This document shows positions 16,075 through 40,393 of a stretch of DNA of 43,682 nt, piece after piece. Below the pieces are notes generated by a model. That model made no database searches. It had not been told where the DNA came from and worked only from the letters and a program-made list of their open reading frames with translations. Each line of letters opens with the position of its first letter. Within the stretch, counting starts at the first letter, position 1. Made by a program: the position numbers and the translations under genes. Source of the stretch: Candidatus Undinarchaeota archaeon (GTDB lineage Archaea; SpSt-1190; JASMDC01); assembly GCA_964519305.1 (NCBI GenBank), contig CAZFHY010000024.1, positions 1-43,682 on the forward strand. The letters are read 5' to 3'.

Positions 16075-17001
16075 CTACGACACGATACCCTTGGTGATCT
16101 TGAGGAAGGCGTCGTCGAGCTTCGTCTCCCGTTCGTGGAACGAAACGAGACGCACGCCCTCGCCCACAAGGGCCTTCACGAGGCGGGGGCAGGTCTCCCT
16201 GTCACCGGTGAACTTGACCAGGAGCTTGTCATTACCCACAACCTTGATGCCGGCGACGCAGTCGATACCGTGGAGGATGCGTTCCGTCTTCTTGAGGTCC
16301 TGTTTCATGACCTCGAGCTCTACGATGTTGTGCTGGGCGGCCGCCTCGAGTATGTCCTCCATGGAGCCGTGTTTGATGAGCTTCCCCTGCTCGATAATGG
16401 CCAGTGAGTCGCAGATACCTTCTAGGTCGGGGAGGATGTGTGACGAGATGAAGATGGTCTTGCCCATCTTCCGCAGTTCCTTGAGCAGCTCGCGCAGCTC
16501 GATGCGGGCACGCGGGTCAACTCCCGAGGCAGGCTCGTCGAGCAGGAGCACTTGAGGATCGTGGACCAGCGTCTTGGCGATACCCAGTCGCTGACGCATA
16601 CCACGAGAGAGCGAGCTGATCAGGGCTCGACGCTTTCCCCGGAGGTCCACGAGGTCCAGCAGGTCCCGGATGACCGAAGGGCGTTGTGCGATGCGGTACA
16701 CCCGGCCGAAGAAGTCCATGTACTCCTCGACCGTCATGTCCTCGTAGAATCCCATGTTCTCGGGCATGAACCCCATGATCTTGCGGATCTCGACCTGCTC
16801 GGTCATAAGGTCGAACCCACCGACCTTTGCAGTACCCGCAGTGGGAGGGATGAGCGTTGAGAGCATCTTGAGGGTTGTGGTCTTCCCGGCGCCGTTGGGT
16901 CCTACGTACCCGCAGATCTCCCCGTCGCCTATCGTGAGCTTGAGCTCGTCGACAGCGACTATATCGTCGTACACCTTTCTGAGACCTTCGATCTCTATCA
17001 T
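16075..17001 (-). CDS. ABC transporter ATP-binding protein (ABC-2/GldA-like)
   Basis: GPNGAGKT, LSRGMRQR, LLLDEP, SSH; C-terminal LDDAFLKITKG. Confidence 0.95.
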   Translation of the reverse strand: MIEIEGLRKVYDDIVAVDELKLTIGDGEICGYVGPNGAGKTTTLKMLSTLIPPTAGTAKVGGFDLMTEQVEIRKIMGFMPENMGFYEDMTVEEYMDFFGRVYRIAQRPSVIRDLLDLVDLRGKRRALISSLSRGMRQRLGIAKTLVHDPQVLLLDEPASGVDPRARIELRELLKELRKMGKTIFISSHILPDLEGICDSLAIIEQGKLIKHGSMEDILEAAAQHNIVELEVMKQDLKKTERILHGIDCVAGIKVVGNDKLLVKFTGDRETCPRLVKALVGEGVRLVSFHERETKLDDAFLKITKGIVS

Positions 17002-18956
17002 GGGGATACCTCCACGGGGAAGGACCGGACACAGCCCATGAATCCGTCAACCCTGCTCCCCGGTGACGGGTTCACGACCACATCGAAGAAGTGCTTGCGT
17101 ATGTCCGCGCTATCGATGCGGTAGTTGAGGCCTCCCGAGGAGCGGGACATGCAGTTGGACAATAGCTCGCGCATCTCCTCCAGTTCCTCGGTCGAGATGT
17201 CCTCGGGCATGCTCTCGAGCACGGAGTATGGATCGAACCGTTTGCACGCTGGGCTGAGTGCGGCCAGGTCCGCGGTCTCGCCTGGAGCGAGGTCGCCCAC
17301 CGATGCCATGTACCGGCGTCCGCCCGCGACGTAGATGTCCTGGAGAGTGTATGGGGACAGGTTGGTAATAGTCCCCGATGCAACACATTCATACCGGCCC
17401 ACGGGTTTGAGGGTGACATCCCCCTGCACCACGTCATGTGACGCGAAGGTCCTGACAAGTTGCATATCGGCAGACCAAGTTCCCAGTTTCATCTCTTCCG
17501 TGGTCACTCCGTCGTCGGTGAAGCTCTTGAAGTTCTTGACCGGGTACGTTGATCCCCCTGTATAGCTGACCTCGTAGGACCTTTCTGAGGGGGAGAAGAG
17601 AATGAGCTTGGAGACCACCTCGTGATTGGGAAGGCCGTAGGTGATTACGTCCATGCTAAGGACGTGCGCTACCACGCTCGAGCTCCTGAACCAGATCCCG
17701 TAGAATACGATGAGCAGGGAGAATAACACGGCCACTACCGGGATGGACAGGAAGTTACGCCAGTACTTCTTGCGGCGTGCGAAGACCAGATAGTTGATCG
17801 GACCGATGAGCAGCACGTAAGCGAGCAGAACGGTGGTTATGAACAAGCGGGATGGCGGGCGCACCTCCTGGAGGTAGGCCTGCTTGGTCCAGAGCATCTC
17901 TCGCTCCTGTGCGGGGATGGCGTCGAGGAATGCCTTCCAGAACAGCTCGCGGTCGATAAGGCGGTCCACGGCGCTGTTGTAGCCCGCGTCAAATGCGAGG
18001 AACATGACATGGCCGCGCCCGAACCGGCCGAGCACGGCCAGCGGATACTGCTTCCCATCGTCCTTGAAAGTGGATAATACGTCCTTGACCTCACCACGGG
18101 GAAGTGCTCGGACGACGTTCATGGGGGTGGCCATGGTGGCCATCTCCTGACGTAGCTCGTCCCGGGCCTGTGCGAGTAGGCCGTAGGTGTTGATGTCATC
18201 GCCCGAGACCGTAGTGTACTCGCCCAGGGTCACGGGCAGTAAGTTCTCTACGAAGGTCCCGCGGACGCTAGCATGGTACCGGCCCGTCGAAACGACGAGG
18301 GCACCCCCGGTGGCAACGAACGTGCGCAGAGCATCGATCTGGGCCGTGGAGAGGCTCGACAGGTCGCCTCCCTTGAGCGCACCCCCGTTGATGATGACGC
18401 CGCGGAACATCTCGTACCCGATCGGGGTATCGGGCAGACTGTCAGTGTTGGTGTGGACCGTTTCGAGGTCATTGAGGACATCAATGTACTTGAGTGAACT
18501 GCCGGTCTCGTCCAGTACGAGGAAGGATGTGTCCTTGCGCAACTGCTGGAGACTGACGTTGACAGCATGCTCCTTGCCACTGAGCGTGACGACGATCTCG
18601 AATGTGGTGGGCACGACCCGGTCCATTAACAGGGGGAGGTCGTACTTCTTGCTGGACCGGCCGGGGACCGTGAGCGGGCGACTGCCGACGATCACGACCA
18701 TGGACTCTCGCCGGCCGCGTGTGTAGGTAGGGGCATGAACGCGTGCCTGGAATGTACCCGTCAGGTCACCAAGGTCCGGGTTCTCGATGACGGCCGATAC
18801 GGTCATCCACTCGTTCCGGCGGTATCGCGTCTGGAGCCCGTCGTCAAGGATGGATATCTTGGGCGCGGCCACGGCCAGGACCAACGCAAGGATCAGCATC
18901 ACGAGCACAAGGCGTAATGGTCGCGTTATCCTTCCCCTCCGGTCATGCCACGGCAT
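16998..18956 (-). CDS. Membrane protein with an extracellular GATase-like domain and an internal double-TM hairpin (ABC accessory)
   Basis: Signal/TM helix; LPDTPIGYEMFRGVII...LSTAQIDALRTFVATGGALVVSTG...LLPV...GRGHVMFLAFD; then AYVLLIGPINYLVFARRKK...IPVVAVLFSLL. ATGA overlap with the ABC gene. Start uncertain (18956 or 18974). Confidence 0.75.
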   Translation of the reverse strand: MPWHDRRGRITRPLRLVLVMLILALVLAVAAPKISILDDGLQTRYRRNEWMTVSAVIENPDLGDLTGTFQARVHAPTYTRGRRESMVVIVGSRPLTVPGRSSKKYDLPLLMDRVVPTTFEIVVTLSGKEHAVNVSLQQLRKDTSFLVLDETGSSLKYIDVLNDLETVHTNTDSLPDTPIGYEMFRGVIINGGALKGGDLSSLSTAQIDALRTFVATGGALVVSTGRYHASVRGTFVENLLPVTLGEYTTVSGDDINTYGLLAQARDELRQEMATMATPMNVVRALPRGEVKDVLSTFKDDGKQYPLAVLGRFGRGHVMFLAFDAGYNSAVDRLIDRELFWKAFLDAIPAQEREMLWTKQAYLQEVRPPSRLFITTVLLAYVLLIGPINYLVFARRKKYWRNFLSIPVVAVLFSLLIVFYGIWFRSSSVVAHVLSMDVITYGLPNHEVVSKLILFSPSERSYEVSYTGGSTYPVKNFKSFTDDGVTTEEMKLGTWSADMQLVRTFASHDVVQGDVTLKPVGRYECVASGTITNLSPYTLQDIYVAGGRRYMASVGDLAPGETADLAALSPACKRFDPYSVLESMPEDISTEELEEMRELLSNCMSRSSGGLNYRIDSADIRKHFFDVVVNPSPGSRVDGFMGCVRSFPVEVSP

Positions 18957-18979
18957 TGACACTGTATGGAACAAAGGTA

Positions 18980-19030
18980 CGGTTAGCTTTTAATTTGTTC
19001 TTGCCGCGGGCCAACGCTGATAAAGCTTGC
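18980..19030. promoter_or_regulatory. Divergent promoter region with AT-rich TATA-like elements
   Basis: agcttttaattt (~18985) and gataaagctt (~19019) lie between divergent genes. Confidence 0.45.
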
Positions 19031-19040
19031 ACCCCTCCCT

Positions 19041-20459
19041 GTGACCGTGGGGCTGCGGCAACGAGTGGAGGCGCTCAATCCCATCCTCCTTCGCGAACTG
19101 GCGGAAGCTACTCGCCATCGCAATTTCTTGTTGTTCGTCACCGGCTTCTCCATTGTCCTCCTCCTGGCAGTGGCCATCTCCTGGCCTGCGCCTGACGAGC
19201 GGTACAGCGGCCGGTACACATGGCGGTCAGGTGAGGTCCTGTTCGCGACCTTCTTCTCGTTCGCTGCGTTCATGCTCGCGCTCCTCGTCCCTTCGTTCTC
19301 CTTCGACGCGATCACAGGGGAGCGGGACCGGGGCACGTTGGACCTTCTGGTCATATCCCCAATATCGTCCCGGGAGATCGTGGAGGGGAAGACGCATGCG
19401 ACGGTCGTGCTCGGTGTGCTCTTCCTGGTGATCACCGCACCGTTCTTGTTCATGGTCTACCTTCTGGGGGGCACACCGCTCTATGTTGTCCTATTCTCTT
19501 ATGGAGGATTGATCCTCATGACACTCCTCCTAGCCAGCCTCGGTACACTGACGTCCGCTCTGGCATCCCGGACATGGCAGAGCGCAGTGGCCACCTTCAT
19601 CATTGTCTTCGGTATACTCTTCCTTACCGCGGCGGTCATAGATGGATCACGGGGGCCGAGGGGAGATGATGCGTTCGCAACGTTCTGGCGGCTTATCATC
19701 GGAGAGCCCGATACCTACCCCTTCGGGCTCGTACGCCTCTTCCTCGTAACGATAGCGGTCGCGGCGGTCCGACATTTTGTCGTCGTCGTAGATACTCCTT
19801 CCGCGGGATCGAGAATGCGCTTGCTCGTACCCCTCCTGCTATTCTTCCTCATCGTCTATTCCATATTCATCTGGGGGATGTTCACCAACATTAGTGGGGA
19901 AGGTTTTTTCGGCCTCCTCTTCTTCATGTTTTCATTAATGTCCCTTATGGCAGTATTGTGGCGGCTGTTCCTTGATACGAGCGGACAGAGCGATCTGATG
20001 TACGATGTAGGTTTCATCATCCTGTTCGGACTCCTCTTGGTAACGGTGGCCCTTGACATCGACGAGAAACCTTTCCAGTATATTGGCGGCTCAGGTGCAA
20101 TCTCCACTGCCATCGAACTAGTGATCCTCTCCCTACGGGAGATGTGGCTAGTCATCATCTTGCTGAGCACGCTCTTCGGGCTCGCGCTCCTCTGGTTGCC
20201 CGTGCTCGCGTCGATCGCCGTGCTCGGGACTATAGAGCTGCTCGGGTTCACGCCGTGGCTTACCAAGGCGCTCGGTACTCCTGGGGATATCGGCGTAGTC
20301 ATTCCCCTCGGTATCGCAGTGGTCGCCTGCTCTCTCGGGCTCTACGACATCATGACAGAGCTCGGCAGCCGTCGGCTGCTCACGTCTGTGAGGCAGGTAC
20401 GACGGGAAGTGCCTGAGGACGCGCCGGTCGTCTCCGCAGCGGAAGGCGAAACGCCTTAA
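19041..20459 (+). CDS. ABC-2-type permease, paralog 1
   Basis: NPILLREL...FDAITGERDRGTLDLLVISPISSREIVEGK; many TM helices. Confidence 0.85.
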   Translation: MTVGLRQRVEALNPILLRELAEATRHRNFLLFVTGFSIVLLLAVAISWPAPDERYSGRYTWRSGEVLFATFFSFAAFMLALLVPSFSFDAITGERDRGTLDLLVISPISSREIVEGKTHATVVLGVLFLVITAPFLFMVYLLGGTPLYVVLFSYGGLILMTLLLASLGTLTSALASRTWQSAVATFIIVFGILFLTAAVIDGSRGPRGDDAFATFWRLIIGEPDTYPFGLVRLFLVTIAVAAVRHFVVVVDTPSAGSRMRLLVPLLLFFLIVYSIFIWGMFTNISGEGFFGLLFFMFSLMSLMAVLWRLFLDTSGQSDLMYDVGFIILFGLLLVTVALDIDEKPFQYIGGSGAISTAIELVILSLREMWLVIILLSTLFGLALLWLPVLASIAVLGTIELLGFTPWLTKALGTPGDIGVVIPLGIAVVACSLGLYDIMTELGSRRLLTSVRQVRREVPEDAPVVSAAEGETP

Positions 20460-20483
20460 AGCTTCATCACGACAGGGCACGCA

Positions 20484-21698
20484 GTGGACCTGCGCGAGAG
20501 CTTGAGGGAGCCGAATCCCATACTTCTCCGGGAACTGGGTGGTGCCGTGCGCCACCAGCGGTTCCTTCTGTATGTGACGGGATTCGCATTCCTGGTCCTG
20601 CTCGTTGTGTACGGTTCGTGGCCGGACCAGCTGGAAGTTGATCCATACTATGGAACGTCCTATGGTAGTTACGCCCCGTGGCAGGTCGCCGAGGAAATGT
20701 TCGCGGCCCTGATGTTCACTACGGTTCTGCTCATGATCATGCTCGTCCCGTCCTTCACCTTCGATGCGATCACCGGCGAACGGGCTACAGGGACCCTCGA
20801 CCAGCTCCTGGTGGCACCCATCTCGTCCTCCGACCTCCGTCATGGGAAAGTGATGGCGGGATTTGCCTTGGGAGCAGCGTTCTTGCTGATCACCATGCCC
20901 TTCCTCGCAGCTCTCTACCTTCTGGGTGGCCTCCCGCTCTACGTGATCGTATCCACCTATGCTTTTCTTGTGATCATGACCTATTTCCTGGCCAGCCTCG
21001 GAGTGCTGATGTCGGCACTTGTGAGCCGGACATGGCAGAGCGCAGTTGCCACGTACGTCGCCCTATTCCTCTTCCTGATACTCTCGAGCTATGTCCTCGC
21101 GACCAGCTCGGTCGGCTGGGACGATGATGACTCGCTCGCGCTCTTCATGAAAGGCGTCCTGGGCGAGATCGACCAGGACAGCTACCGGCCCGCACTGGTA
21201 CGCACGGTGGCGCTCACTGGGCTGGCTATCGCCTTCATGTGGTGCGATTGGACCACTAAGGTGCTGTTCCTGGGAATTGTCATGGTGATTGCCGTGGCAA
21301 TCGACCTTGACTCTACCTCCGTCTTCGATATAACCTATAGTGATGGGGTGGCCGTCGTGTTCGAGGTGGCGATCTTCCTCATACGGGAAGCTTGGCTCGT
21401 GCTGGCCATCGCGGGTATGCTCACCGGTATGGGACGTCATTGGCGTCCGATCATCGTGGTGCTCCTGCTCCTAGGATTAGTGGAATGGGGCGGATGGAGC
21501 GAGGCTGTGTCCCGGGCCTTTGGTGAGGAGGATTTCTATCAGGTCCTACCTTTCATCATTCTCTTTGCCAGCTACGCGTTCGGCACCTGTGCCCAGATGT
21601 CCCTGTGCTCCGATGAGGTCCTGTCCCATCGGGGCGAGGAATTCAAGTTGGGATTCATCACGCTGGGTGGCGAGCACTCTGTCGCAGAGGAGGCCTAG
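20484..21698 (+). CDS. ABC-2-type permease, paralog 2
   Basis: NPILLREL...FDAITGERATGTLDQLLVAPISSSDLRHGK; multi-TM. Confidence 0.85.
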   Translation: MDLRESLREPNPILLRELGGAVRHQRFLLYVTGFAFLVLLVVYGSWPDQLEVDPYYGTSYGSYAPWQVAEEMFAALMFTTVLLMIMLVPSFTFDAITGERATGTLDQLLVAPISSSDLRHGKVMAGFALGAAFLLITMPFLAALYLLGGLPLYVIVSTYAFLVIMTYFLASLGVLMSALVSRTWQSAVATYVALFLFLILSSYVLATSSVGWDDDDSLALFMKGVLGEIDQDSYRPALVRTVALTGLAIAFMWCDWTTKVLFLGIVMVIAVAIDLDSTSVFDITYSDGVAVVFEVAIFLIREAWLVLAIAGMLTGMGRHWRPIIVVLLLLGLVEWGGWSEAVSRAFGEEDFYQVLPFIILFASYAFGTCAQMSLCSDEVLSHRGEEFKLGFITLGGEHSVAEEA

Positions 21699-22801
21699 CC
21701 TTCCTCGTACGCTAACTGACGTGTTACGAGCTGAGCAGAGGCAAGAGCGAACATGAGCTCGCTGACCCCCAGGTAGAGCACGGGGGGAAGTAGGTGTGTG
21801 ATGGTCATCCCCGCATCCCGTGTGATCCCGACGAGCAAGATGGTAAGGGCGAGGAGGGAACGCCATTGGAAGAGGAGCCCATGGACGATGAGGAATAGAT
21901 AGAACATCGATGGTAGCCAGAACACGAGCACGACCGGGAGCGGGAGTGTGCGTGGAGCTGCAGCGCCGACCGGTCTATAGAGGATAAAGGGGTACCGCAG
22001 AATGAGCATGACGGCCACCGCAAGGACGACCATGATGGTCATCTCGAATGTCCTGGTCCTCCCGGACAGGAGAGCGGCCACTACCATGATGCATACGGCC
22101 CCGCCGAGCACGGCCCAGATGTTCTGGATGAGAGGCATCGGGAGCGATGAAGCTCCTGCCGCCTGTGAGAATCCCAAGAGGTTGGACGGGATGCTGAGGG
22201 CGATCGACAGTATCCCGATGCACATGAAGGTCCATACCGCAGCTGTCCATGTACGCCGGGCGAGCGATGAGACGGCGACACCGAGGGTCGCATAGTAGTA
22301 GGTGTACACGACGATCATGACGCCTTCGTTGATAAGGGAGAGCGTCTCCACTCCCCCGAGCAGGTAGGCAGTAGAGAGCACGGGGAGAACAGCTACGAAG
22401 AGATAGAGGCCGATGGTCAGACCGAGATTGACCTTGCCCCTGACGATCTCGTCAGTACCGAGGGGGCTTACGATCAGCTGGTCCAGGGTTCGTGATGTGC
22501 GTTCCCCTGTGATGGCGTTGAACGAGTAGGCGGGGACCACTATGAGGATCATCAGACCTAGAAGCTGCCAGGTACCACTGGCGATATATGAACCGAGCTG
22601 GCCGGAGCTCATCATCTGGAAGCCTGTAAGGTCCGCCCATATCTCAGCCAGGGTGAGGGAGCCGATAAGGATGGCGATGATTACCAGGGGCATGAGCACC
22701 ATGACCAGATGGAACCGAGTGCTCTGGGAGCAGGTGCGCAGCTCACGCATCGTGACAGGATTCACTCCCTCCACCCAGTCATCGACCCCCATTCCATTCA
22801 A
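21695..22801 (-). CDS. ABC-2-type permease, paralog 3
   Basis: NPVTMREL...FNAITGERTSRTLDQLIVSPLGTDEIVRGK; convergent with paralog 2, stops overlap in ctag. Confidence 0.85.
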   Translation of the reverse strand: MNGMGVDDWVEGVNPVTMRELRTCSQSTRFHLVMVLMPLVIIAILIGSLTLAEIWADLTGFQMMSSGQLGSYIASGTWQLLGLMILIVVPAYSFNAITGERTSRTLDQLIVSPLGTDEIVRGKVNLGLTIGLYLFVAVLPVLSTAYLLGGVETLSLINEGVMIVVYTYYYATLGVAVSSLARRTWTAAVWTFMCIGILSIALSIPSNLLGFSQAAGASSLPMPLIQNIWAVLGGAVCIMVVAALLSGRTRTFEMTIMVVLAVAVMLILRYPFILYRPVGAAAPRTLPLPVVLVFWLPSMFYLFLIVHGLLFQWRSLLALTILLVGITRDAGMTITHLLPPVLYLGVSELMFALASAQLVTRQLAYEEG

Positions 22802-22840: not shown

Positions 22841-23479
22841 TCAGAGGATCTGGTGGCTCACACGTCCGCCGGTGGGGATGTCAAGGCTCAGGATGATACG
22901 CGACTCCTTGGCATTGGCCCAGGTCAGGGGCAGCATGAGAGCCCGCACGTCCGACGCCGAGCCGGTGTACGCGATGATGACCGTCTCACGGTTGAGGAGT
23001 TCGGTGACACCGCCGCACTCGCCCGAGGCGGCCAGTTCGTCGAAGGTGCAGCAAGCATCACGGTTGTCATCAGTGTCGATCACGAGGCTCACCTCGGACC
23101 CGGGGATCGAGCCGTCCTGGCCGTCCGGCAGGCTGTAGCCCGCTTCGGCGGCACCGATGTCGCTGAGGGACAACCGCTCAATGCCGGAAAGGCGGAGGAG
23201 CATGCACACCCTGCCTTTCCGTTGGCATAGCTCGGTCCCGTTCGGCATCGTCTTCTCTGTGCAGTTGCTGGCGGTCCCGGCCTCAGCTGACGTACAGTCC
23301 TTGTCACAGCTGAAGGCGGAGATCACCTGGAGCTGGGGGCGCATGAACTCGCGCATGATAATCTGCTCCTGCGGCACCCACTCCTCCCCCGAAAGCAGGT
23401 TAGCGAGCGCGGCAGCGCAGAGGACGATGACGAGAACACCCTTGAGCGTCCCGTGTGATCGTACCTTGTTGTTCTCCAT
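22841..23479 (-). CDS. Single-pass 8-Cys extracellular protein, paralog B of 6516..7283
   Basis: LQVISAFSCDKDCT...CQRKGRVCMLLR...DACCTF...GECG...RETVII...RVSHQIL; its ATG overlaps the aIF5A-like stop (TGATG). Confidence 0.75.
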   Translation of the reverse strand: MENNKVRSHGTLKGVLVIVLCAAALANLLSGEEWVPQEQIIMREFMRPQLQVISAFSCDKDCTSAEAGTASNCTEKTMPNGTELCQRKGRVCMLLRLSGIERLSLSDIGAAEAGYSLPDGQDGSIPGSEVSLVIDTDDNRDACCTFDELAASGECGGVTELLNRETVIIAYTGSASDVRALMLPLTWANAKESRIILSLDIPTGGRVSHQIL

Positions 23480-23871
23480 CACATCGGTTTCTTCTCGAGG
23501 ATTATGTTGCGACCCTCGAGCTGCATGAAGATGATCACATCACCCTCGGCGATGCCCGCGGCCACATCCTCGTTAAGGGCCTCGGCGTCCAGCATCTCGT
23601 AGGAGCGCGAGTCCATGACCTGGAAGTTACCGCCCCCGGACGAGATGAGCTGGCCCTCCTTACGCATGACCTCGATCTTCGTGAGACGGTCCTGGTGAGC
23701 ATAGTTGAACGAACGCTCTCCACCACCCAGAGCGGGCTTGCAGATGAGCTTGCTCTTCGAGTGCGAGTGCGTCCCGCAGACGACGACCTCCTTGCGTAGG
23801 ATGCGCCATATTGTGTCATTGACCTTGATATAGGAGCCTTTCTTGATATCCTTGGCGGTGACCGTTGCCAT
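23479..23871 (-). CDS. Archaeal translation factor aIF5A/eIF5A homolog with an atypical loop (CGTHSHSK)
   Basis: 130 aa; AKDIKKGSYIKVND KOW/SH3-like start; C-terminal OB-fold pattern RKEGQLIS....FQVMDSRSYEMLD...EG; loop aligns by eye to the canonical S-K-[PT]-G-K-H-G-x-A-K. Confidence 0.85.
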   Translation of the reverse strand: MATVTAKDIKKGSYIKVNDTIWRILRKEVVVCGTHSHSKSKLICKPALGGGERSFNYAHQDRLTKIEVMRKEGQLISSGGGNFQVMDSRSYEMLDAEALNEDVAAGIAEGDVIIFMQLEGRNIILEKKPM

Positions 23872-23940
23872 GGTCTTTGGGTGAGGGGGCAACGCTTAAA
23901 TTGTTCGACCCGATACGTTGAATTGGGAGGGCGTTCATCA

Positions 23941-26433
23941 ATGGGGGTTAGGAGACCTAGCAAGAAAAAAGGCACAATTCTGAGCATTGTGATCATCCTG
24001 GCCCTTGCGGTCCTTCTCCCACTCACCCTGGCAGCGACCGATGGCACTGTCGATGTCACGTCGCTAGGAGACATGGATGATCTCTTAGATGGTGCCAAGT
24101 CGAGCTCTGGATCAGAAGAAGATTTCGACGCACTTATTGCTGATCTCGACAAACTTGTCGATAAAGGTACCGATGTCACAGGTGCGGACAAGGCAGCCCT
24201 CGATGACTCGGTGCTAGGAGATATGAAGGAGCTCTTGGATCGGGCCAAGTCGAGCGAAGGGTCCGAGGAGGATTACGACGCACTTCTTGCTGATTTCGAC
24301 AAACTTGTAGCTAAAGGAACCGATGCCACTGGTGTGGACGGTGACGCCGTCAATGACGAACTGATAGGAGAGCTCAAGGGGCTCTTAGACGGTGCCAGGG
24401 AGAGTGATGGGTCGGAGAAAGATTTCGATGCAAGTCTTGATGATATCGATGGACTTGCTGCTAAGGGGACCAAGGCCATTGGTGTGGACGAGGCTGATGT
24501 CGAGGCCACGGTGGAGAGAAAGATCGAGCAGGTGGAAGGGCGGATGTCACAGGTCGCCGATCCGCGACTGCAGGAAGAGATCGAGGCGCTCTTAGAGCGT
24601 GCTCGGAAGAGTCATGGATCAGGGGATAATCTCAACGCACTCCTTGAAATCGAGGACGCTATCACTCTGCAGGATGCGGCAATATGGGGGACGGGGACGG
24701 AACGGCCGTCCACGAACCCACTGGAGCGATGGATGGGAGGGCTGAACGAGCTCGACCGGATCTACTTCCTCGGTGTTGCTATCGCTCTATTCCTGACAGT
24801 GGCCGCCTTCGTGTTCGCACATGGCCCCGGCGAGGAAGTGGTGGCCGCACCGGTCCGCTATGTGTTCAGGATCAAGCGGTTGGGGATCATTTCCCTCGGG
24901 ATCGTGTGCGCAGTGGTCCTGGGTGTCATTGGGATACTGCCCGCGGTCGTGTACGGTCTCATCGGTGGGATCCTTGGTACCGCCTTTAACGCACCGGCGG
25001 TCGTGGCCGACCTCGGTGTTACAGGGATCGTAGCGTTCCCTCTGGGATTCGCCATCATGGGTCTAATTGGCGGTGTGCTCGGTGCCGTTCTGTTCGACAT
25101 CGTTGCGTTCGTGACGGGTGGTATCGGCCTTGAGCTCGAGTCGGGGAGGCTCAAACGTGTTGGTTTGATCTCGTTCGGGAAGCTGTACGGGGGGATCCTG
25201 TGTCTCCTCGGTATACTCGGGGCCGGTGCGAGCATCGCACCGGGTCCTGTCCGGATGATGCTCCCTCTCATGGCCCGACAGATGCCCTTCACGCTCGTGG
25301 CGCTCCCTGTCGGCGGTGTTGTCGTGGGTTTCCTTTGTGGGATCATCGAGGCCTTTGCGTACAACCTGCTCGCTAAATTGAACGGCGGTATCGCACTGGA
25401 GCTCAAGGGTGGTGCACTGCGACATGTCGGAGTGTTCTCCTCGGGTTCGTTCTGCGCGATCCCGCTTCTCCTCGTAGGTATAGTACCCGCTGCCCTGTAC
25501 GGCCCGGTCGGGACCATAATCGGTCCGCTCGTCGACTTCGGTGAAGCCAGCGGTAGCATGGGATTATCGGCCATTGCCATCTTCCCTTTCGGTTTCGCTG
25601 TAGGAGGGTTCCTCATCGGTGGACTCGGTGCGCTCCTGTGCAACCTTGCGTTCCGTTTCAGTGGAGGGCTCGCGCTCGGGCTGGACGCTCCTTCTGGAGC
25701 CACTCCAGTCCCGGCCAGCAAACCTGTCCAGAAGCAGCCTCACGAGTTGAAGTCCTCGAAGCGGGCGATGCCACCGAAGGGCTCGAAAGCAACGGGACGA
25801 TCACGCCCACATCCCCGGGGGGGGGTCGGGCTCATGGCCAAGAGCAGGCGGACAGGGAACATGCCTGTCCCCGCGGTGAACGATCCCGCCTCTTTCTCTG
25901 GAAGTGTGCTCATGGTAGTAAGACCGCAGGAGCCGCTCTCCCCTAACGAGGTCAAGTCGATCGCGTTCAACGTCGAGAGCGGTATGGGCCTCCTTCTTGT
26001 GGGGGACGGAGGCGAGGATAACTCGAACCTCAACGGTCTTGCTCGACGGTTCGGGGCCAGCTTCAATAGCGATACGGTCTCGAGCTTTGAAGGATCGGAC
26101 ACCGCGACCTACACACCGCACATGTACGCCCTGCCCCATGTGATCACCGAGGGATTGGAGGGCTTCCAGGTGGACCGTTGCTGCTCGTTACGTCTCGCCG
26201 ACTGGTACGGCCAGGTACTTCTCTTCTCGAGCGAACATAGCTTTTCGGACGTTGACGGTTCGGGCACTCAGGACGAGGACGAGTACGCCGGCACATGCGC
26301 GGTGATGGGGAAGGCCGAGATCGGTAACGGTCGTGTCGTGTTCATCGGTGATGCCGTCATGTTCGAGCGGAACTCGCCCGCTGACGTCAAGCTGCTCGAC
26401 CGTGTCTTCAAATGGTTGAAGCACGAGACATAG
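23941..26433 (+). CDS. Mosaic membrane protein: signal/TM, three 50-aa acidic helical repeats, three DUF3566-like TM hairpin repeats and a C-terminal GldG/IFT52 (GIFT/DUF4350)-like domain
   Basis: Repeats seen directly; IKRLG..S....[FYC][DN]l.....GG[IL].L pattern x3; LMVVRPQEPLSPNEVKSIAFNVESGMGLLLVGD...NLNGLARRFGASFNSDTV...HVITEGL...GRVVFIGDAVMF. Confidence 0.75.
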   Translation: MGVRRPSKKKGTILSIVIILALAVLLPLTLAATDGTVDVTSLGDMDDLLDGAKSSSGSEEDFDALIADLDKLVDKGTDVTGADKAALDDSVLGDMKELLDRAKSSEGSEEDYDALLADFDKLVAKGTDATGVDGDAVNDELIGELKGLLDGARESDGSEKDFDASLDDIDGLAAKGTKAIGVDEADVEATVERKIEQVEGRMSQVADPRLQEEIEALLERARKSHGSGDNLNALLEIEDAITLQDAAIWGTGTERPSTNPLERWMGGLNELDRIYFLGVAIALFLTVAAFVFAHGPGEEVVAAPVRYVFRIKRLGIISLGIVCAVVLGVIGILPAVVYGLIGGILGTAFNAPAVVADLGVTGIVAFPLGFAIMGLIGGVLGAVLFDIVAFVTGGIGLELESGRLKRVGLISFGKLYGGILCLLGILGAGASIAPGPVRMMLPLMARQMPFTLVALPVGGVVVGFLCGIIEAFAYNLLAKLNGGIALELKGGALRHVGVFSSGSFCAIPLLLVGIVPAALYGPVGTIIGPLVDFGEASGSMGLSAIAIFPFGFAVGGFLIGGLGALLCNLAFRFSGGLALGLDAPSGATPVPASKPVQKQPHELKSSKRAMPPKGSKATGRSRPHPRGGVGLMAKSRRTGNMPVPAVNDPASFSGSVLMVVRPQEPLSPNEVKSIAFNVESGMGLLLVGDGGEDNSNLNGLARRFGASFNSDTVSSFEGSDTATYTPHMYALPHVITEGLEGFQVDRCCSLRLADWYGQVLLFSSEHSFSDVDGSGTQDEDEYAGTCAVMGKAEIGNGRVVFIGDAVMFERNSPADVKLLDRVFKWLKHET
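24064..24500 (+). repeat. 150-bp degenerate coding tandem repeat x3
   Basis: Units start at 24064, 24214 and 24364 (ctaggagac/ctaggagat/ataggagag); shared gccaagtcgagc and gacaaacttgt blocks in units 1 and 2. Confidence 0.9.
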
Positions 26434-26828: not shown

Positions 26829-29800
26829 TTATCGGACCTGGACCCGGCAGTCATCGCAGCATGCGGCGTTGGCGAGCTGGCAGGAGCCGTCGGGCCGGGT
26901 CTTGACCTGTGGGGCGAAAGCGTCGGGGCAGCCGCTGCACAGCACCAGCAGATAACAGCCGTCAGCGCCGTTCTTTCGCGTGAGGCATCCACCACCGGTG
27001 CAGTAGGAGAACTGGATCTGACGTTTTCGCGCGCCCTCCGGGCACGACACATCGATGGCCGCAGGGGTCTGTATGGCGGATGGCGGGAGGTCGCATGACG
27101 GATCATCTTCGCGGACACGCAGCCGTGCTGAGGGCTGGTCGGCCACGTCCACGTTCCCCTCGTGCCAGCGGACACCGTTGCGGTCCGTGAGATTGACGTG
27201 GATCAGGTAGGTGCCCAGCGACGGCACAACGAGCTCCTGTGACGTGAGGAGTGTTGTGGAGCGTGTACCTGAGGGAAGCCTGAAAGCGTTGTCCACTGCA
27301 GTGGCCAGAAGGTCGTTGGAATCCACGTGGTACACCGAAAGAGCGAGCCGGCCGGCGAAATCCAGTGGGCTCGGGTTCGACAGTTCAACGAGTACCCTGA
27401 TGTTGTCGCAGGTGCGTGCGGTCGAGAGCCGTGTGTCCCCATCGGGTTCTCGGAAGAAGGCGTCCTCAACGGTCAGGCGAGGCATCGTCACCAATACGGA
27501 GGCTTGGGGGAATGTGTGGTCGGGCGTTAGGTCGTAACGCTTCACGCCGGCAGCGTCCCAGAGAGTTAGCCCTGCCCGCAGTTTCCTACCGATATCCTCC
27601 GGCTCGATGTCCGTGGTCGTGCTCGAGACGGTCACAACCCCCCTTACGGGTATCGGCGGAACGTCCCGTGTCTCTGTGAGGAGCGTGTTACCGAGGTCAT
27701 CGGTGATGGTCAGACGCAAGACGCCTGAGAACGGATCGTTCAGGTTGTTGGCCAAGGTGGCACGCACGCCGACAGCAGAGCCGGGGAACGCCTCATCCCC
27801 GTTCACGTCACCCCCTATTGCCAGCCATTCCACTCCGGGAAGCCCTCGGCGGAGAGGGAGGTAGGACCGGGTGGTGAGATTTCCCAGCACCGGACGGTCG
27901 TCGTGCCAGGCAGAGATCCTTGCGGATAGCTCACCGGCCTGACCTGTACCTAGGAGGCTCTCTGTCACGGCAACAGGTGCCGAGCAAATCGCGATGTTCT
28001 CCCCCGGGCGGACTGTGACGGGTGCGGCCGTGTATGCACATGGCCCTGCAGGCCGTGTGGCGACCAGGTCCAGAGGGGGCGCACCATCGCAGTTGTTAGT
28101 GATCGCACACCGGTCGCGATGGGTCTGGACCTGCACACGGGTCTGCACCAGTGCGGTCTCTTCATCACAGACCGTCCCCGGGACGGTCGCCGCCACGAGC
28201 ACCTCGTCCGTGATGGCAGCAGCGGAACAGAGGTCGTCGGCATGGGCTGGGACGGTCACCTCTGTGACGACGCCCTCGGCAGCGAGTCGGGCGGTCAGGT
28301 GCACGGTGCAGTCCGCGTCGATGCCTGCAAGCTCGAGCTCCAGCTCGCGACCTCCCGGCAGGGCCAGCGATGCGGCGGGCATCGCGTTCGATAGGCGAAG
28401 GGTTCCCATTAGCGTGCAGGAGGGGGTCCGATCACAGCCCTCGGGTCGGGTCCACGCGGGCAATCCTCCCGTGTCCAATGGCTCCACGACGATCGGTCCC
28501 CTGAAGGTGGCCCCGCCCTCGTTCGTGAGCACCGCGCACGCCCGCACGCGTTCGCCCCGGAACGCATGTGTGCGCGAAGGCCGGTTTCCTACCTTGAAGT
28601 ACGCCTCTTCGAGCACCAAGCGTGGTTCGGCCGTTCCGATGCACTGGTCTGCGTCGAGAGCGATATTACCTGTAGTGCATGCGCAGCCGAAGGCGTCAGG
28701 ATCTCCGTTGTAGAAGGATATGAGGTCCGAGCACCCGTGGTCTCGGACACAACAATCAGCGAGCTCACGGTAATGTGCGGCCTCCTTGGGAAGACGGCAG
28801 GTCTTGGGGTAGGCGTCCCTCGTGCTGGGCTCAGGTCGTGAGACGGGCGTCCCCAACGGATCGGAGATAGTAGCGCAGTGGCATATCCCTGTCACGCTCT
28901 CGTCCCTAACGACAGCACGGCAGTAGCCGTAGAGCAGCTCATCGGCCGCCTCGGGTGGTTTGTGTGCCAAGCACGCGTCCTGGCAGTCCAGCAGACGTTC
29001 CATGCCCGCGCGCTCACCGGTCCTGAGGTCGAAGCATGATGGGTCCACCGGGAACAGGCGGTTGAGCCAGGCGGCAGAAAGCGCCCCAAGCTCGCGCAGG
29101 TGGTCCTTGAGGTCGGTCGCCTCGTTCGCAGCAGCGTCGATTGCGCTACGCGTGGCGGAGCAGAGCATGGGCACGGATGACGGGTAAGCGGCGTTTATGA
29201 AGAACTGGCGAGCGTCCCCGGCCGTGTGGAAGGGGTAGTTGGTCTCCAGGTCACACACACCGTTCTCGCATCGCACGCAGCGTGGGAACGCGCCCTGCTC
29301 GGCGACCGTGCCTGGTACTCTGCCACAGGCAGGAGCACATGGGACAGCTGTATCGAGCCCCAGGTCACGCGCAAGCCCCTCGAGAAGTATCGAGCGCCAT
29401 TCCTGGCCTAGAAGGGCGTTCACGAGCCGTTTGTTCCCGGGGGGGGAGCCATTACCGTCGCCCGCCAGGTCGCCAGCGCCCGTGTAATAGTCATCGGAGG
29501 TGGGGAAGATCTGGTTCGAGGCGAGCTCGCCGCAGTCCGCGTCCTCGTCCACCGGAGCGTCCAGGACCCTGGGATCGGTGATGAAGGCGCCGTTCTCAAA
29601 GCGTTGCTTGACGTGGAGCGTAGTGCCTGCGGGGAACACGTCGTCATAGAAGTTGGCATCGGTGTCCAGGTCCGTACTGTCACTGCATCGCGTGTCCGCC
29701 CATCGGGGGTTGACCTGTGCAAGGAAGCACCCGCCCGGGCATTCGCAGAGGTTGTCGAGACCGCGGTCGGTCGCTGCGGACACATCTAATCGTGGTGACA

Positions 29801-32800
29801 GTATGAATGGGACCTTGTTCCGCACGACTGCGGACGGTTCATGTACCACGTCCCACCACAGGCTCACGTTCATGGGGTGTGCCTCTGTCGGGCCGTGATC
29901 CGTATCCTCGTCGAACACGATGTATGTGTCCTCCTTTGCCCTGTAGCTGCGTGCGGTAGCCCGGCGGTAGGAAGGATTGAGGTCGCCGGCGGTCGCCATC
30001 ACCAGCTGGGTGAGGCGGGTGACGAAAGTACGCTGGTCCATAGGAGGCTGTCCGAAACCGGTCTCAGTCATGAGCTCCGCCAGAGCTTTATGGATCGATG
30101 CGTCGAGCAACGCGTTGCAGTACGTCCCGCCATCGATACATGACGGGCATTCGCCACGTTCGGGGAGCGATGCTTCGTCCAGACAGCGTGCACCTTTCAG
30201 GTAACCTGTAACGTTCCCACGGAGCGATTCGAGATGAGGGAGGTAATCGTCCAAGAATGTGACCAGCCTGCGGAGGGGCCGCGCCGCCTCGCAAGGATCG
30301 TCCGAGCCAGTATCATCCACCTCGATATCCCCCTCCGTCCGCAAGCCCTTACCGGTGAACAACCGCATGCCCAAGAGGGTGCACGATTCCTTGGCAGCGA
30401 GCACGTCCTTGACGCAAGTAGCGATCCCCGAAGGTTCGGCCACCACACCTGCGACATCAGCCTCGGTCCCCGCAGGAACTGCCGTGTCACCTGCGCATGT
30501 GGCAGACATGGTGAGTAGTGGACAGTTCTTGAGCCTTCCATCGAGATAGCTCTCACCTATCGCTGCTTGGGCGGACCAGTACGTGCACAGCTCGGTACAG
30601 AGGCGGACAGCGCCCGAGTAATCCAGTTCGTCTGCGAACCCGGCACGCAGTTCGCTTCCCAGCCGGGTTGCGAGGAAGTCACCGATGATGGGCGTCTCAT
30701 CCCGGGATGGGGGTGCCTGGCCAGCGCGGAGAAGGGAGTCCCAGATGTCCTCGTCAAGAGCGAAAATGCAGTCACCGTAAGCGCTCTCCAGTCCGTCGAG
30801 GGCGTTCTTGCACGCGTCGCACCGGCGCTCTGAGGCATCGGCCAGCCCTTTCAGTGTCGTGCGCAGTCGTTCGAGGTACTTGCGGCGGTTGGCCAATGAG
30901 ACAGCTAGGTAGTCGAGGTGGATCTTCCGGTTGAGGTGTCGGAAGGAAGGGCAGGTCCCGTTGGCATAGATGAGTTCGTTGCCACCTGCGCACTCGTCCT
31001 TGCAGGGAGCGGGCGAGCGTGATGCCTGGCGCAGCAGCTCGACGGTCTGAAGGGATGGTTCCGGGAGCCTCGCTTCGGGCGTCCCTGCGCGGACCGCCTC
31101 GGGACCGCATGTGTCCGGATCGGTGCATCGTACGACGATGTGTTCCCATCCCTCTTCCTGACATACTCTGCTGGTCGCGTCAGGTAACCGGTCGATGAAG
31201 TTATCGGCGAAACGTTGGGGCGGGTTCGATCCGGGGATGCGCCAGAGGGAGGCCATGTACGTGAAGAACCCTTGCGTCCAGTCAACACCATAGGAGTTAC
31301 GGGTCCCTTCTATGTAGAGCGGGTTCGCCAGTCCCGAGATTATCTGTGGTTTCCGGGCGATCACGAGGGAATCGATGAGGGCCGCTTTTGAGAACGCGAG
31401 CGTGTTAGGTCGGTCGGAGGAACCGGTCAGTCCGGCGAGCGCCATCTCTTCGGCCTGGCGTCGAGCAGCGAGCTCGATCTCCTCGGCCAGTCGATTGGCT
31501 TCTTGGATATACGATTGCGGTAGGTTGTAGAACTCGTCGTCGAACACCCTCGAGACCACGTCGCCCAGCCGCTCGGCGAACAGTGCAGTGGCACCGGTGA
31601 TCTTCATCCGCGTCCTGACGATATCCTTCACTGCCTGTTCGTTGATGTTCAGGTCGCGGGCGATCCGTTCGCTGATGATGTCCTGTGTGTTCAGCACGGC
31701 TTCTCGCACGTACTGCTCCTCGACTTCTGCCGTGAACACAGTGCGCACTAGCGAGCCTGCATTGGCCCAGATATCGTCCGTGGGGACACCCTCGGGTGCA
31801 AGCTCCTGAGCGCGTATGAAAACCTGGCGCTGATAGGACCGGGCCAGCATCATTAATCGTTCCTGGGCCATGATCGGCCCGCTGAACGCATCGACGAGAG
31901 CGTCGAGCCCGTTGCCCGCGGTGAGCCGGTCTATGATCACCTCCAACCGGCGACGGGCAGCATGCCTTCGCATACGCTGTTCGAGCTCCAAAGGATCGTC
32001 CGCTAGTCGGTGGAATGCCTCGGGTCCGAGCTCCTCGGCGAGCAAACGCATCATTCGCGCGGTCTGGGCGTCCTTGAGCTCCTCCCGGAGTGCCGTGATG
32101 TCATCATCAGGTATTTCATCATCATCGGTCGTGCGGACTGCCCTTGCGGTGAGCGGTCCGGCCGCGTCGGGACCCAAAGAGGCGGCCTTGCGGATGCCTG
32201 CGTACACAAGGTCGTCGGACAGCTCGCCCAAAGCTGTTGTGGGGTCATCGGCAGCAAGGCCCTGGGCCACGAGCATTCGCGCAGCGACAACGATCGTGGA
32301 CTGGGCGAGAGCTGTGTTGCCCAGACCCTCCAGGCCACTGGAGCGCACACGGGTTGCGAGAGTAGCGGCATTGGTCGTTACGAGCATCTCCTCGATACCG
32401 TCGGCGACCGCGTCCCCGAAGTTGACTCTGATCCGCGGGACCACCGTGGAGGGCTCGCTCTCAAGAGCCTCTGCGAGCTCACGTGATCCGAATTCATCGG
32501 CGGTCCTGACCAGCCGCTGCTGTCCGGTGGATGTGAGGACCCCCTCACCCTCGACTGCGAGGCTCCGAGCGCCCAGCATACGCAATTCCCTGAGCGAACC
32601 GTCCCCTAATCGATATCGGGCGTTGTGGACCGTGTCCTGCGCGTTGTCCTGTACGATCAGTCTGACGAGCACATCGCGTGACGATGCGAGAAGGTGCTCC
32701 TGTTGTAGCAGGTCGCCTGCTGCGTCGGCGATCATCGCCTCGTATAGGGACGACATCCCGTACTCTTCTAGCACCGTAAGACCGTCGGAGAGGAGGACAT

Positions 32801-35800
32801 CCCGTGCCGACCGGATGAGGGCGTGGCGGAGCTGGCGGGCGGTCTCGGCGCCGAGACGGGCGTCCCACATGGCGAGGTCGGGTTCGGTCCCCATGATCCA
32901 TGCCCGGTCACCGGGTGATAGGGGCGGATCGATACCGGAGAGCACGGTCTCACTATCCTCGATCAGTAGCTTGAGGCCGAGCTCATAGAGCCCGTCAGCG
33001 ACATCGTGCCCGAGGCGGGCGGCCACGGAATTATAGACATCGTCTAGCGTGGCCAGGGGGACGCCGTCCTCGGTGCGGAGGAGGGCATCGGAGAGGCGCG
33101 CATAGGTCACCGACTCCACGTCATCGGCGGTCTCTGCCACTATCGACGCAACGAGCGGCCCGATCACACGTGCCGCCTCGGCGACCCCCTCATCGACCAT
33201 CTCGTTATGAGCGCGTGCTCCGCCCAGCGACGACGCCATCTCCCGGCCTTCCGGGGAGAGGTTCTCTCCGAACGCAGCGGATTGTGGACCCATCAGGTCC
33301 AAGGTACCACGCATGCGCATGACCGTCGACATGGAGTCCTGGAGATTGTCGGCCACAGAGCGGAGGATGTCACCGGCGGGGATATCGCTCCGTGTAAAAT
33401 AACCGGACAGGTCCGATGAGGACGGATCAAGTGTCGACGCCAGCATCCCTGCGAGGCCGAAGGGATTCGTGGGGTCCGAGGCCAGCCCGAGCAGGTGACC
33501 GGCGAGCTTCCCCGTCCCCTCCCGGTTGTATCCACCTGTGTAGAGATTGATACATTCCTGGTCCCCGCCCGTGCTGCGGTATAGCGGGAAATCCTCTTTG
33601 TCGTACACCATGTCCAGCATCATTTCGGGATCGAACACATGGGTGAGTTGACCCCGTTCCAATGGCTGCTCCTTCGCATCGAGTGGGCGGACGAAGGGAT
33701 AATGCTTGCCCAACACCGTGTCGAACATCAGCAACGGGATGTGCTCCAGGCGCTGCTCATCGCTCTCATCGCAGCGGATCCCCGAGCGATCGCACCCGCG
33801 GAGCTCGATGTGCGTCGTGACCTGTGGTTTGATGAGCTCATCTACACCGTAGTGCTCGACACGAAGGCACACGCCACGTTCCTTGTCGAACCAGCGTGAG
33901 CAGTCGTAGAGCAGTCCCATGCGACGCGGGAGTTTGTACTCCTCCTCGTCCATGAGCGTGGAGATCTCACGCAGGTCGTGCACGTACCGGACCTCCTCGC
34001 ACGCGTCACCCTTGCACAGCTGCCATACATAGCGGGGACGGAACGCATCGTTGGAGACGTCGTAGACCCACTTAACCTTTGGCGCTCCTGCATAAGTGGC
34101 GACCACCGGTTCGTCCATGGGATTAGTACAGTTGAGGACCAGGCCGAACACATGCTCGCGGATATCGCCTGGATTGACCGTGATCGGCTGGAGGATGCGG
34201 GGCTTGAACGCGCTCTCGTCGTACGAGTCGAAGAGGGTACCGGAAATGAGACCTATCGCACCGTCAACCAACCCTCCTTTCTGCCACCCCGTCCCGGTCG
34301 GTTTCTTACCAGAGAAGTAACATCGGTCGGTCCGGTCCTTGAACACACCCGTCTTACAGAGACGGTCCTTGGCGTCGTACACGAAGTATTCCTCGGACGA
34401 ACCCGTGGCGGGCAGCTTCAGGTTGTGCGGGCAGGATACCCAAGCAGTGCGAGAGATGACGACACGCCAGGGGTAGTTACCGGCTGACATCTGTCCCGAA
34501 AGACCGTCCGCAGAAGGTTCCGGAAGTGCCATCTGAGCCCTCAGGTAGGCGGGACACTGGGCCACCTTCTTGGGATTTAGGACCCAGTAACCGTTCTTCA
34601 AGATGGTGAACTCCGGTCCGAACATGAGGTTGAGGTATACCTCGGCCGCCTCGCCGCTCCGCGCGTTGTACGAGCTGTGGCCGACCATCAGGTCCGCCAC
34701 CTCGTCATCCTGGCCCCAGGAGCGCATCCAGTCCGCTGACGCGTCTCCCGACGCTGCGTCACCTGAGGCTGAAGAACCTTTCATGCGACATAGCGAGATG
34801 CAGAACGCGCCATAGAACACACGCGAGGAGAAGTCAGCAGCGGATAAGGGATCGCCCCATCCTGCAAGGCTCATCCCCAGTTCACCTGCCGCCGTCCCCA
34901 TGTCCAGGAACGTATGGAGCGTGCCGAAACGTTGACGGAGGAGTCCGTCGACCAGCCCGGACGTGAGCTGCTCCTCGCGGCTGCGGGGTACTTGCTTGCC
35001 GAGGACGTTCTCGTAACAGGAAAGGGTCTCTGACCAGCATGCGCCACAGTTCTGGGTATCGATCATACGCAGTGCCGGTTCGCGGCACTTGACCAGAGGG
35101 CTCCTGCTGAGAGCGTATAGGTTGGATGTATAGGACTGGAGCAGGAAGTCACCGGAAAGCCATGTCCGGTTGGCCAGGCAGTCCTGTTTATTGTCGCCCG
35201 TGCATGGACCGAACAGCCGCGCTGTAAGGTCCTCATGCTCAGCGCCGGTCGGGGTGAGGGTGAGCGTCTTGAGCGCGAAGTAGTTCAGCTCGCGGGCGCA
35301 GATGCGGCCCGCCCAAGTGGCCAGGTCGCCCTCGTCCACTGCCGACGTGTCCGGCCAGGAGCGGGCGCACAGGGGATTGTCGCGACAGAACGCAAGGTCG
35401 TCCCCCGCTGCTACCGCCTCTGCCGCCGCGTCAGCTGCTGAGGCCAGTCCCGGATCGGTTAGGGCGTTCTGCTTCACGACGGCGTAGGAGCAGAGGCTCT
35501 TGAACCCGGTGCACGTGCTCTTGTCACCCCCCGTGGCCGTCATGCAGTCGCAGAGGGTAGTCCCCTCCCTGCTGACGTATGTATCACAGGGACGCAACCC
35601 TGTTGGTGCGTCGTTGAACTGGAGGGGCATGAGGCATGAAGGGACGACCAGTGAGGACCGCTCACCGAAACTATCCCTGAACTGTGAGCAGAAGGGGTCG
35701 CGTATCGACTTCACCGCATTACATCGGGTGAGAACATAGTACTTGGCCATGTCATCGACCGATGTGCGTGAGATGGGGATGGGATTGGGGACGACCAGCC

Positions 35801-40332: not shown

Positions 40333-40393
40333 AGGCGAGATAATGTCACAATCATTGATAACCCTTGCGCCCACGCCATCGCCCCTGCCGTAA

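Follow-up and report, generated by a model that had tools for sequence, protein, structure and literature searches.

Canonical archaeal aIF5A is a protein of about 130 amino acids (models NF003076 and TIGR00037; structures 1bkb, 1iz6, 2eif, and 8put) that combines an SH3/KOW-like domain with an OB fold and carries hypusine, an essential modification, on a lysine at the tip of its beta3-beta4 hairpin, in the loop G-K-H-G-H-A-K. According to Schmidt et al. (2016, PMC4770232), eIF5A contacts the ribosome through the backbone of the beta3-beta4 loop and its basic side chains, through Arg27, and through domain II, which is inserted into uL1. Sieber et al. (2024, PMC11611912) write that eukaryotes and archaea have only lysine at the tip, whereas Arg, Asn, Gln, Met, Ser, or Gly also occur there in bacterial EF-Ps. 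EfpL (YeiP; PDB 8s8u) is an unmodified paralogue that is described as always co-occurring with EF-P (PMC13602936, PMC11611912), and it consists of three domains, with an arginine at the tip of a loop that is longer by two residues (Sieber et al. 2024, PMC11611912). The EF-Ps of the PGKGP subfamily, from Actinobacteria and others, are reported to be functional without post-translational modification (Tomasiunaite et al., bioRxiv 10.1101/2023.09.18.558224). Here we describe an aIF5A-like gene with a threonine codon at the hypusine position. It lies in a stretch of 43,682 nucleotides (contig CAZFHY010000024.1 of assembly GCA_964519305.1, a Candidatus Undinarchaeota archaeon; the whole stretch is called the window, and its genome is G000). 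We are highly confident that this gene belongs to a conserved and apparently undescribed family of aIF5A paralogues, which stands beside canonical aIF5A, retains both the KOW/SH3-like and the OB domain as well as the hairpin length, replaces the hypusine lysine by an invariant threonine, and has rewritten surroundings of the tip. The features on which this is based are the following.

23479..23871, minus strand: coding sequence of the aIF5A-like paralogue, 130 amino acids, with ATG at 23871 and TGA at 23479-23481 (translation)
23755..23775, minus strand: codons 33-39, the hairpin tip G-T-H-S-H-S-K, counterpart of the hypusine loop G-K-H-G-H-A-K (ungapped loop alignments)
23770..23772, minus strand: ACG, the Thr34 codon, where canonical aIF5A has the hypusinated lysine (sequence; the same in contigs of four runs)

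Hairpin tip and fold of the protein

The loop of the window protein reads V-V-V-C32-G-T34-H35-S-H37-S-K39 in translation. BLASTP against the canonical aIF5A of the same genome (23% identity, E 1e-13) gave an alignment without a gap in the loop region, in which T34 falls on the hypusine lysine and K39 on the last lysine of G-K-H-G-H-A-K. A phmmer comparison with solved aIF5A structures matched 8put and 1bkb, placed both residues in the same way, and again left the loop region ungapped. In a 40-row MAFFT alignment (A1), which includes 25 full-length family members, T34 also stands at the hypusine lysine position, and the hairpin has exactly the same length as in canonical aIF5A. Because the loop-region alignments are ungapped and T34 is at this place, neither K39 nor any other lysine can hold the hypusine position. 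From the sequence, the initial annotation had proposed that hypusine cannot be attached at the canonical site of this protein, and this proved correct. It had also named what could overturn this view, namely another lysine at the hypusine position, a sequencing error, or a fold other than that of IF5A, and none of these applied. Logan contigs from four public runs of two studies contain the stretch with 0 differences, and the source sample may be among these runs; together with the conservation of the threonine across the family, this rules out a sequencing error. The N-terminus of the protein is consistent with A1 and with the 20-row family alignment A2 described below.

The two domains, which had been thought to look intact, were recovered in the predicted structure. 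The AlphaFold2 prediction, made from the family alignment, has a mean pLDDT of 91.5 and consists of an SH3/KOW-like barrel with the beta3-beta4 hairpin and a C-terminal OB fold. The hairpin is modelled as a strand (residues 20-32), a turn (33-36), and a second strand (37-46), with T34 at the exact tip. The top PDB matches found with Foldseek are all aIF5A, eIF5A, or EF-P, including ribosome-bound eIF5A; the best are 1bkb, 8put, 1iz6, and 2eif (probability 1.00, TM 0.65-0.74). A look-up in the ESM Atlas gave IF5A-like clusters only. The sequence models place the protein in the same superfamily at scores far below their cut-offs. NF003076 (aIF5A) matches it from end to end (residues 3-126) with 57.4 bits against a cut-off of 138, TIGR00037 with 28.9 bits against 75.45, the EF-P model NF001810 with 35.6 against 161, and the EfpL model NF003392 with 22 against 216; Pfam gives EFP_N only, below the threshold (17.7 bits, cut-off 23).

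Compared with canonical aIF5A, the paralogue thus has about the same size, the same two folds, and the same hairpin length, and it shares G12, H35, H37, K39, and the motif Q-x-M-D-x-x-S-Y-E-T. It differs in having threonine instead of lysine at the tip, in replacements at S30, P32, G36, A38, and nine other positions, in belonging to a separate clade, and in being additional to a canonical copy. EfpL is the best functional analogy, as it is likewise a second, unmodified member of the superfamily that stands beside the primary factor on a branch of its own, and the likeness drawn to it in the initial annotation is apt in this respect. The published description of EfpL gives it three domains, an extended loop, and an arginine tip, whereas the window protein has 130 residues rather than the approximately 185 of EF-P and EfpL, with two domains, an unextended loop, and a threonine tip; judging from these descriptions, the two have no common origin as paralogues. 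Action without modification, which is the reported feature of PGKGP EF-P, is what we propose for the paralogue. In PGKGP EF-P, as described, the tip lysine is kept rigid between two prolines and the protein is the sole EF-P of the organism, whereas in the paralogue the lysine is gone, the canonical proline before the glycine is lost, and a canonical copy coexists. The bacterial EF-Ps with Asn, Gln, Met, Ser, or Gly tips that Sieber et al. list likewise lack a lysine or arginine tip, but they are three-domain bacterial proteins. The Thr-tipped archaeal family is therefore an exception to the Lys-only statement in that paper (PMC11611912), and it occurs beside what looks like a complete hypusine system.

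Family, distribution and co-occurrence with canonical aIF5A

The family is larger than a quick search suggests. A word-index protein search found two proteins, and exhaustive and profile searches were needed for the rest. Exhaustive searching with phmmer through 1.84 billion representatives yielded 53 matches at E<=1e-3. Most of the 25 full-length family members among them have the tip G-T-H-[S/M/C]-H-[S/T]-K; the scores of canonical GKHG proteins are lower. Twenty family rows, the window protein included, make up A2, in which T34, H35, H37, K39, M86, D87, and E92 are invariant. When A2 was used as a profile on a collection of 5.8 billion proteins, it matched 379 clusters at E<=1e-20. Among the matches listed, every newly listed protein (115 of 115) has G-T-H-x-H-x-K at the tip: 108 times as GTHSHSK (P0083, one of these, was read by eye), five times as GTHSHTK, and once each as GTHSHAK and GTHCHVK. 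The window protein has the tip motif and scores 172 bits against A2, whereas canonical copies score 66-105; its own score is partly circular, as it is a row of A2. Support that does not depend on A2 comes from the 115 database proteins and from 18 Nanobdellota copies, which leave out G041 (a row of A2) and G114 (matching row P0013). The reading frame is intact in every family copy seen. Where sources name members, NCBI labels them as hypothetical proteins of Nanoarchaeota or Candidatus Woesearchaeota archaea, and JGI labels them as EF-P/IF5A. Such labels could mislead inferences on hypusine dependence in DPANN archaea. A full-text literature search, mostly at the level of titles and abstracts, found no paper on an archaeal aIF5A paralogue or on IF5A in DPANN, Woesearchaeota, Nanoarchaeota, or Undinarchaeota.

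Two proteins that came up in these searches call for a remark. P0038, a repeat protein of 1242 amino acids, is a chance match over about 30 residues and not a family member. P0146 carries the NCBI label of a Flavobacteriales bacterium MAG, and its contig is probably misbinned, because the protein is an archaeal-type two-domain IF5A-like protein. The family profile found no relative among the IMG/VR contigs searched, and a viral or mobile origin was rejected on this ground.

The residue before the glycine bears on the initial suggestion that Cys32, His35, and His37 form a metal-binding cluster. In the model these three residues lie close together around the hairpin tip, and C32 is also present in the copy of the congeneric genome G001, in that of a single-cell genome, and in P0003. 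As a trait of the family the cluster did not hold up. Among 114 family proteins this position is Tyr in 54, Phe in 23, Cys in 18, Val in 13, and Thr in 6. Canonical aIF5A has H35 without exception and H37 in 81% of cases, so that both histidines are ancestral rather than new, being part of the canonical G-K-H-G-H-A-K. We therefore consider a metal-binding paralogue very improbable.

The collection and taxonomic mapping of GTHxH homologues, which the initial annotation had named as a check, gave a patchy distribution. Of the 17 genomes searched from the phylum of the window, two carry the paralogue, with 172 and 177 bits against A2, and both (G000 and G001) belong to one genus. The other 15 have one copy each, at 66-85 bits, and every loop that was read is GKHG. 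G001 is the only other genome of the genus that was searched. Its orthologue is 85% identical and lies in the same arrangement, and the genome has its own canonical aIF5A and deoxyhypusine synthase (DHS). The other main group of carriers is Nanobdellota, in which 397 of 401 genomes have an A2 match. Twenty of these score 134-182 bits, with the next best at 105.5; all 20 high matches have a G-T-H loop, and all ten lower matches that were fetched have G-K-H-G. One of the 20 carriers (G401) and five noncarriers are unpublished genomes, on which the figure of 20 in 401 therefore depends in part. The copy of the single-cell genome G041 is 45% identical to the window protein, with K-E-V-V-V-C-G-T-H-S-H-S-K identical. 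When the search was widened to 401 archaeal genomes representing 139 families, five were found at E<=1e-32 (G000, G001, G580, G652, and G718), which is a lower bound, as this threshold would miss weaker members. G580 is probably the same genome as G049, since the coordinates and the score are the same.

The initial annotation had left open whether a canonical aIF5A and a DHS are encoded elsewhere in the genome. Both are, and the window protein is thus an additional copy. The canonical aIF5A of G000 lies on contig C2, scores 164.1 bits with NF003076 (cut-off 138), and has the loop S-A-P-G-K-H-G-H-A-K. The single DHS lies on contig C34 and scores 298.6 bits. As genes for a pyruvoyl arginine decarboxylase, an AdoMet decarboxylase, and three spermidine-synthase-like proteins accompany the DHS, the hypusine route of G000 looks complete from its gene content. 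A backup role for a missing hypusine or polyamine pathway was rejected for G000 on the basis of the DHS and polyamine genes. The assembly has 3.63 Mb in 42 contigs, with 99.8% completeness and 4.3% contamination. It is unusually large for a DPANN-type lineage; the congener has 3.8 Mb, and the 15 genomes of the phylum outside the genus have 0.6-1.2 Mb.

This co-occurrence is nearly general among carriers. Besides G000 and G001, a canonical aIF5A was found in G041 and in the carriers G652, G718, G288, and G092, and a second, canonical match is listed for 19 of the 20 Nanobdellota carriers. In the remaining one, G263 (1.3 Mb, completeness not given), only the paralogue was found. DHS is present in all five further carriers tested; a search for it in G041, whose completeness is not given, found none. 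Two DHS genes above the Pfam cut-off occur in G718 (C112 and C126) and in G387 (C7 and C11).

A quick IQ-TREE analysis of 79 rows and 131 columns separated the 37 canonical from the 42 paralogue rows by a branch with an SH-aLRT support of 100, so the window protein does not fall inside the clade of orthologous aIF5A. Together with the congener copy and P0003 it lies inside a 23-row clade (support 99), of which the rest are Nanobdellota copies and representatives of unknown origin. When the 22 database representatives were set aside and the 57 rows whose origin is known were put to an AU test, a topology in which the 18 Nanobdellota paralogues group together to the exclusion of the G000/G001 copy was not rejected (p 0.67). 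Either a transfer between phyla or an ancient duplication followed by losses may explain the nesting of the G000/G001 copy. The composition of the paralogue gene (GC 57%, GC3 80%) matches that of the host genome, which indicates that the gene neither arrived recently nor stems from contamination in binning.

In the sequences compared, Thr34 is invariant in the main (GTHxHxK) clade. A deep-branching group (P0017, P0018, P0020, P0025, P0027, and the G718 copy) has Ser, Arg, or Lys at the tip, and often Ser in place of Gly33 (S-R-H-S-H, S-K-H-S-H). The G718 copy (L095) reads S-R-H-S-H-A-K; the G652 copy (L094) reads G-T-H-S-H-S-V and also groups with deep-branching members. These copies may represent intermediate forms that link canonical aIF5A with the Thr-tipped clade.

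Possible roles of the paralogue

With regard to function, the reading that we tentatively prefer, and to which we give nearly an even chance, is that the paralogue acts as an accessory or specialized ribosome factor that is independent of hypusine and works beside the main aIF5A, or as an occupant of the E site, in analogy to EfpL. The protein would dock at the ribosomal E-site/L1-stalk region as aIF5A and EF-P do, by means of the K-K-G turn, the hairpin backbone, His35, His37, Lys39, Lys41, and the OB face Q-x-M-D-x-x-S-Y-E-T. We infer this docking because the parts that are shared with canonical aIF5A match the eIF5A contacts described in PMC4770232. Its short polar threonine tip would be unable to reach A76 as hypusine does. 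No DHS would be needed, and the P-site tRNA would be steadied in a hypusine-independent way, or the E site would be occupied. When 37 canonical rows were compared with 37 paralogue rows, with five deep-branching rows kept apart, G12, G33, H35, H37, K39, Q74, M86, D87, Y91, E92, T93, and G110 were conserved in both groups. If the ribosomal role is true, archaea have evolved a second factor of this class, as bacteria have with EfpL, and the family offers a natural test of the IF5A scaffold without hypusine.

Several observations weigh against such a role. The threonine tip is neither basic nor long and so provides no copy of the contact that hypusine or arginine makes with the CCA end. EfpL compensates by a longer loop and an arginine, and the paralogue family does neither. 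In the position comparison, the paralogues have other residues at thirteen positions where at least 75% of the 37 canonical rows agree (D18, C22, S30, P32, K34, G36, A38, D49, K52, P58, P66, P100, and W116). The mean net charge of the N domain is +1.6 in the 42 paralogues and +4.5 in the 37 canonical proteins, which fits weaker RNA binding or a changed partner, as far as can be judged from sequence. Selection is also relaxed by a factor of about five relative to the canonical copy: between G000 and G001, dN/dS is 0.28 for the paralogue (dS 0.31) and 0.054 for canonical aIF5A (dS 0.35). A conserved translation context was never seen, and uL3 adjoins only one of the ten Nanobdellota loci that were scanned. 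Nor does the genome seem to call for a second factor. The initial annotation had described the window as encoding proteins very rich in Pro-Pro, and this was not confirmed: it has two PPP motifs in all, and its 3129-aa open reading frame has 10 PP where about 11 are expected from its proline content. In G000 as a whole, 258 of 2,819 crude open reading frames contain PPP, and judged on this genome alone there is no unusual polyproline load. Finally, eight runs are listed with the stretch, and no RNA run is among them.

The relaxed selection could also mean that the gene is a decaying duplicate without function, as its dN/dS is five times that of the canonical copy. We find this barely credible. 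With a dN/dS of 0.28, well below 1, the paralogue is under purifying selection by this estimate. In addition, the frame is intact in all copies, the family comprises 379 clusters, the motif is invariant, the model is confident, and a candidate promoter block is conserved.

Alternatively, the protein may have been repurposed and no longer be a ribosome factor, its SH3-like and OB folds binding or cleaving RNA, or binding another partner, with no need for hypusine. We consider this unlikely. The loss of many canonical invariants in both domains, the lower charge, and the relaxed selection all fit it. Recombinant unmodified aIF5A from Sulfolobus is reported to be no less active than the hypusinated form in degrading mRNAs (PMC9599864), which indicates that the aIF5A fold has RNA activities that are independent of hypusine. 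On the other hand, invariance has been kept in the hypusine hairpin (H35, H37, and K39) and in the OB face in common with canonical aIF5A, the hairpin length is kept exactly, and there is neither a new domain nor a conserved partner gene. If the protein does not act on the ribosome, the family would be a plain example of a core translation factor that has been co-opted for another purpose.

The invariance of Thr34 in the main clade, at the exact tip of the hairpin, raises another alternative, in which this residue (Ser in some deep branches) carries an O-linked modification of a new kind, for example, a glycosyl or phosphoryl group, or is a regulated phosphorylation site that replaces hypusine. 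The flanks are rich in hydroxyl groups (S36 and S/T38), and several unrelated tip modifications are described as having evolved in bacteria (PMC11611912). None of the 22 loci compared (open reading frames within ±1.5 kb, and up to 6 kb in L026 and L027) links a candidate modifying enzyme to the gene, and the Arg, Lys, or Ser tips of the deep-branching copies argue against one fixed chemistry across the family. We regard this alternative as improbable. If it is true, two chemically different IF5A systems would exist side by side in DPANN archaea, and the modification would be a further activation chemistry of EF-P/IF5A and the first in Archaea besides hypusine.

Equally improbable, in our view, is a regulator or competitor, an inactive look-alike that would occupy the E site or bind DHS and thereby damp or time canonical aIF5A, for example, during dormancy. 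The shape of the factor is kept while the active side chain is gone, the gene co-occurs with canonical aIF5A and DHS, and eIF5A has been seen on hibernating ribosomes, to go by the titles of the PDB entries 9rvu and 7oyc. Against this stand the loop flanks for DHS recognition (S30, P32, G36, and A38), which are all changed, and the loci compared, where the gene has no ties to stress or dormancy genes. A complex prediction of the paralogue with two copies of the G000 DHS gave a score of 0.00, which speaks neither for nor against binding.

Genomic context and upstream region

In the window, the paralogue gene lies among genes for membrane and predicted surface proteins, and there are no translation genes in its wider neighborhood. 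The other features are as follows.

16078-22801: an ABC ATPase gene and three ABC-2 family permease genes (Pfam)
22841..23479, minus strand: downstream open reading frame of 212-213 amino acids, whose ATG overlaps the TGA of the paralogue gene (TGATG); N-terminal hydrophobic segment, nine cysteines, no Pfam match
23885..23915, minus strand: candidate promoter block of 31 nt, identical in the congener (upstream regions of G000 and G001 aligned pairwise), with AATTTAAG at 23895-23902
23941..26433, plus strand: divergently oriented gene for a membrane protein of 850 amino acids with acidic repeats, many transmembrane segments, and a weakly GldG/DUF4350/IFT52-GIFT-like C-terminus; the start is uncertain, with a GTG listed at 23881
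26829-36218, minus strand: giant open reading frame of 3129 amino acids, with no Pfam match at E<=0.01 and a signal-sequence-like N-terminus
36274-40374, minus strand: open reading frame of 1366 amino acids

The TGATG coupling of the paralogue gene to the downstream membrane-protein gene, which the initial annotation had described as one for a surface protein, is present and recurs in the congener, but it is confined to the genus. Across the 22 loci no neighbor is shared beyond close relatives: only the paralogue itself clusters widely, and the next cluster comprises three loci. At ten of the 19 Nanobdellota loci listed, the Pfam matches of the neighbors are unrelated to each other and include cytidylate kinase, DNA methylase, uL3, primase, MFS, EamA, Mur ligase, and MacB/FtsX, among others. 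The divergent membrane-protein gene is syntenic in the congener and was not found beside the paralogue in other lineages. In the downstream open reading frame, residues 1-82 are conserved with the congener (68% identity), and the remainder has no match (L026/L028); to judge from the sequence, its C-terminus is either fast evolving or frameshifted. The 3129-aa open reading frame probably encodes a giant surface protein.

Archaeal TATA boxes have a usual position upstream of the start. The sequence AATTTAAG lies about 27-30 nt before the ATG of the paralogue gene, and from this position we infer that the conserved 31-nt block is a candidate BRE/TATA promoter; the mRNA would then have a short leader or none.

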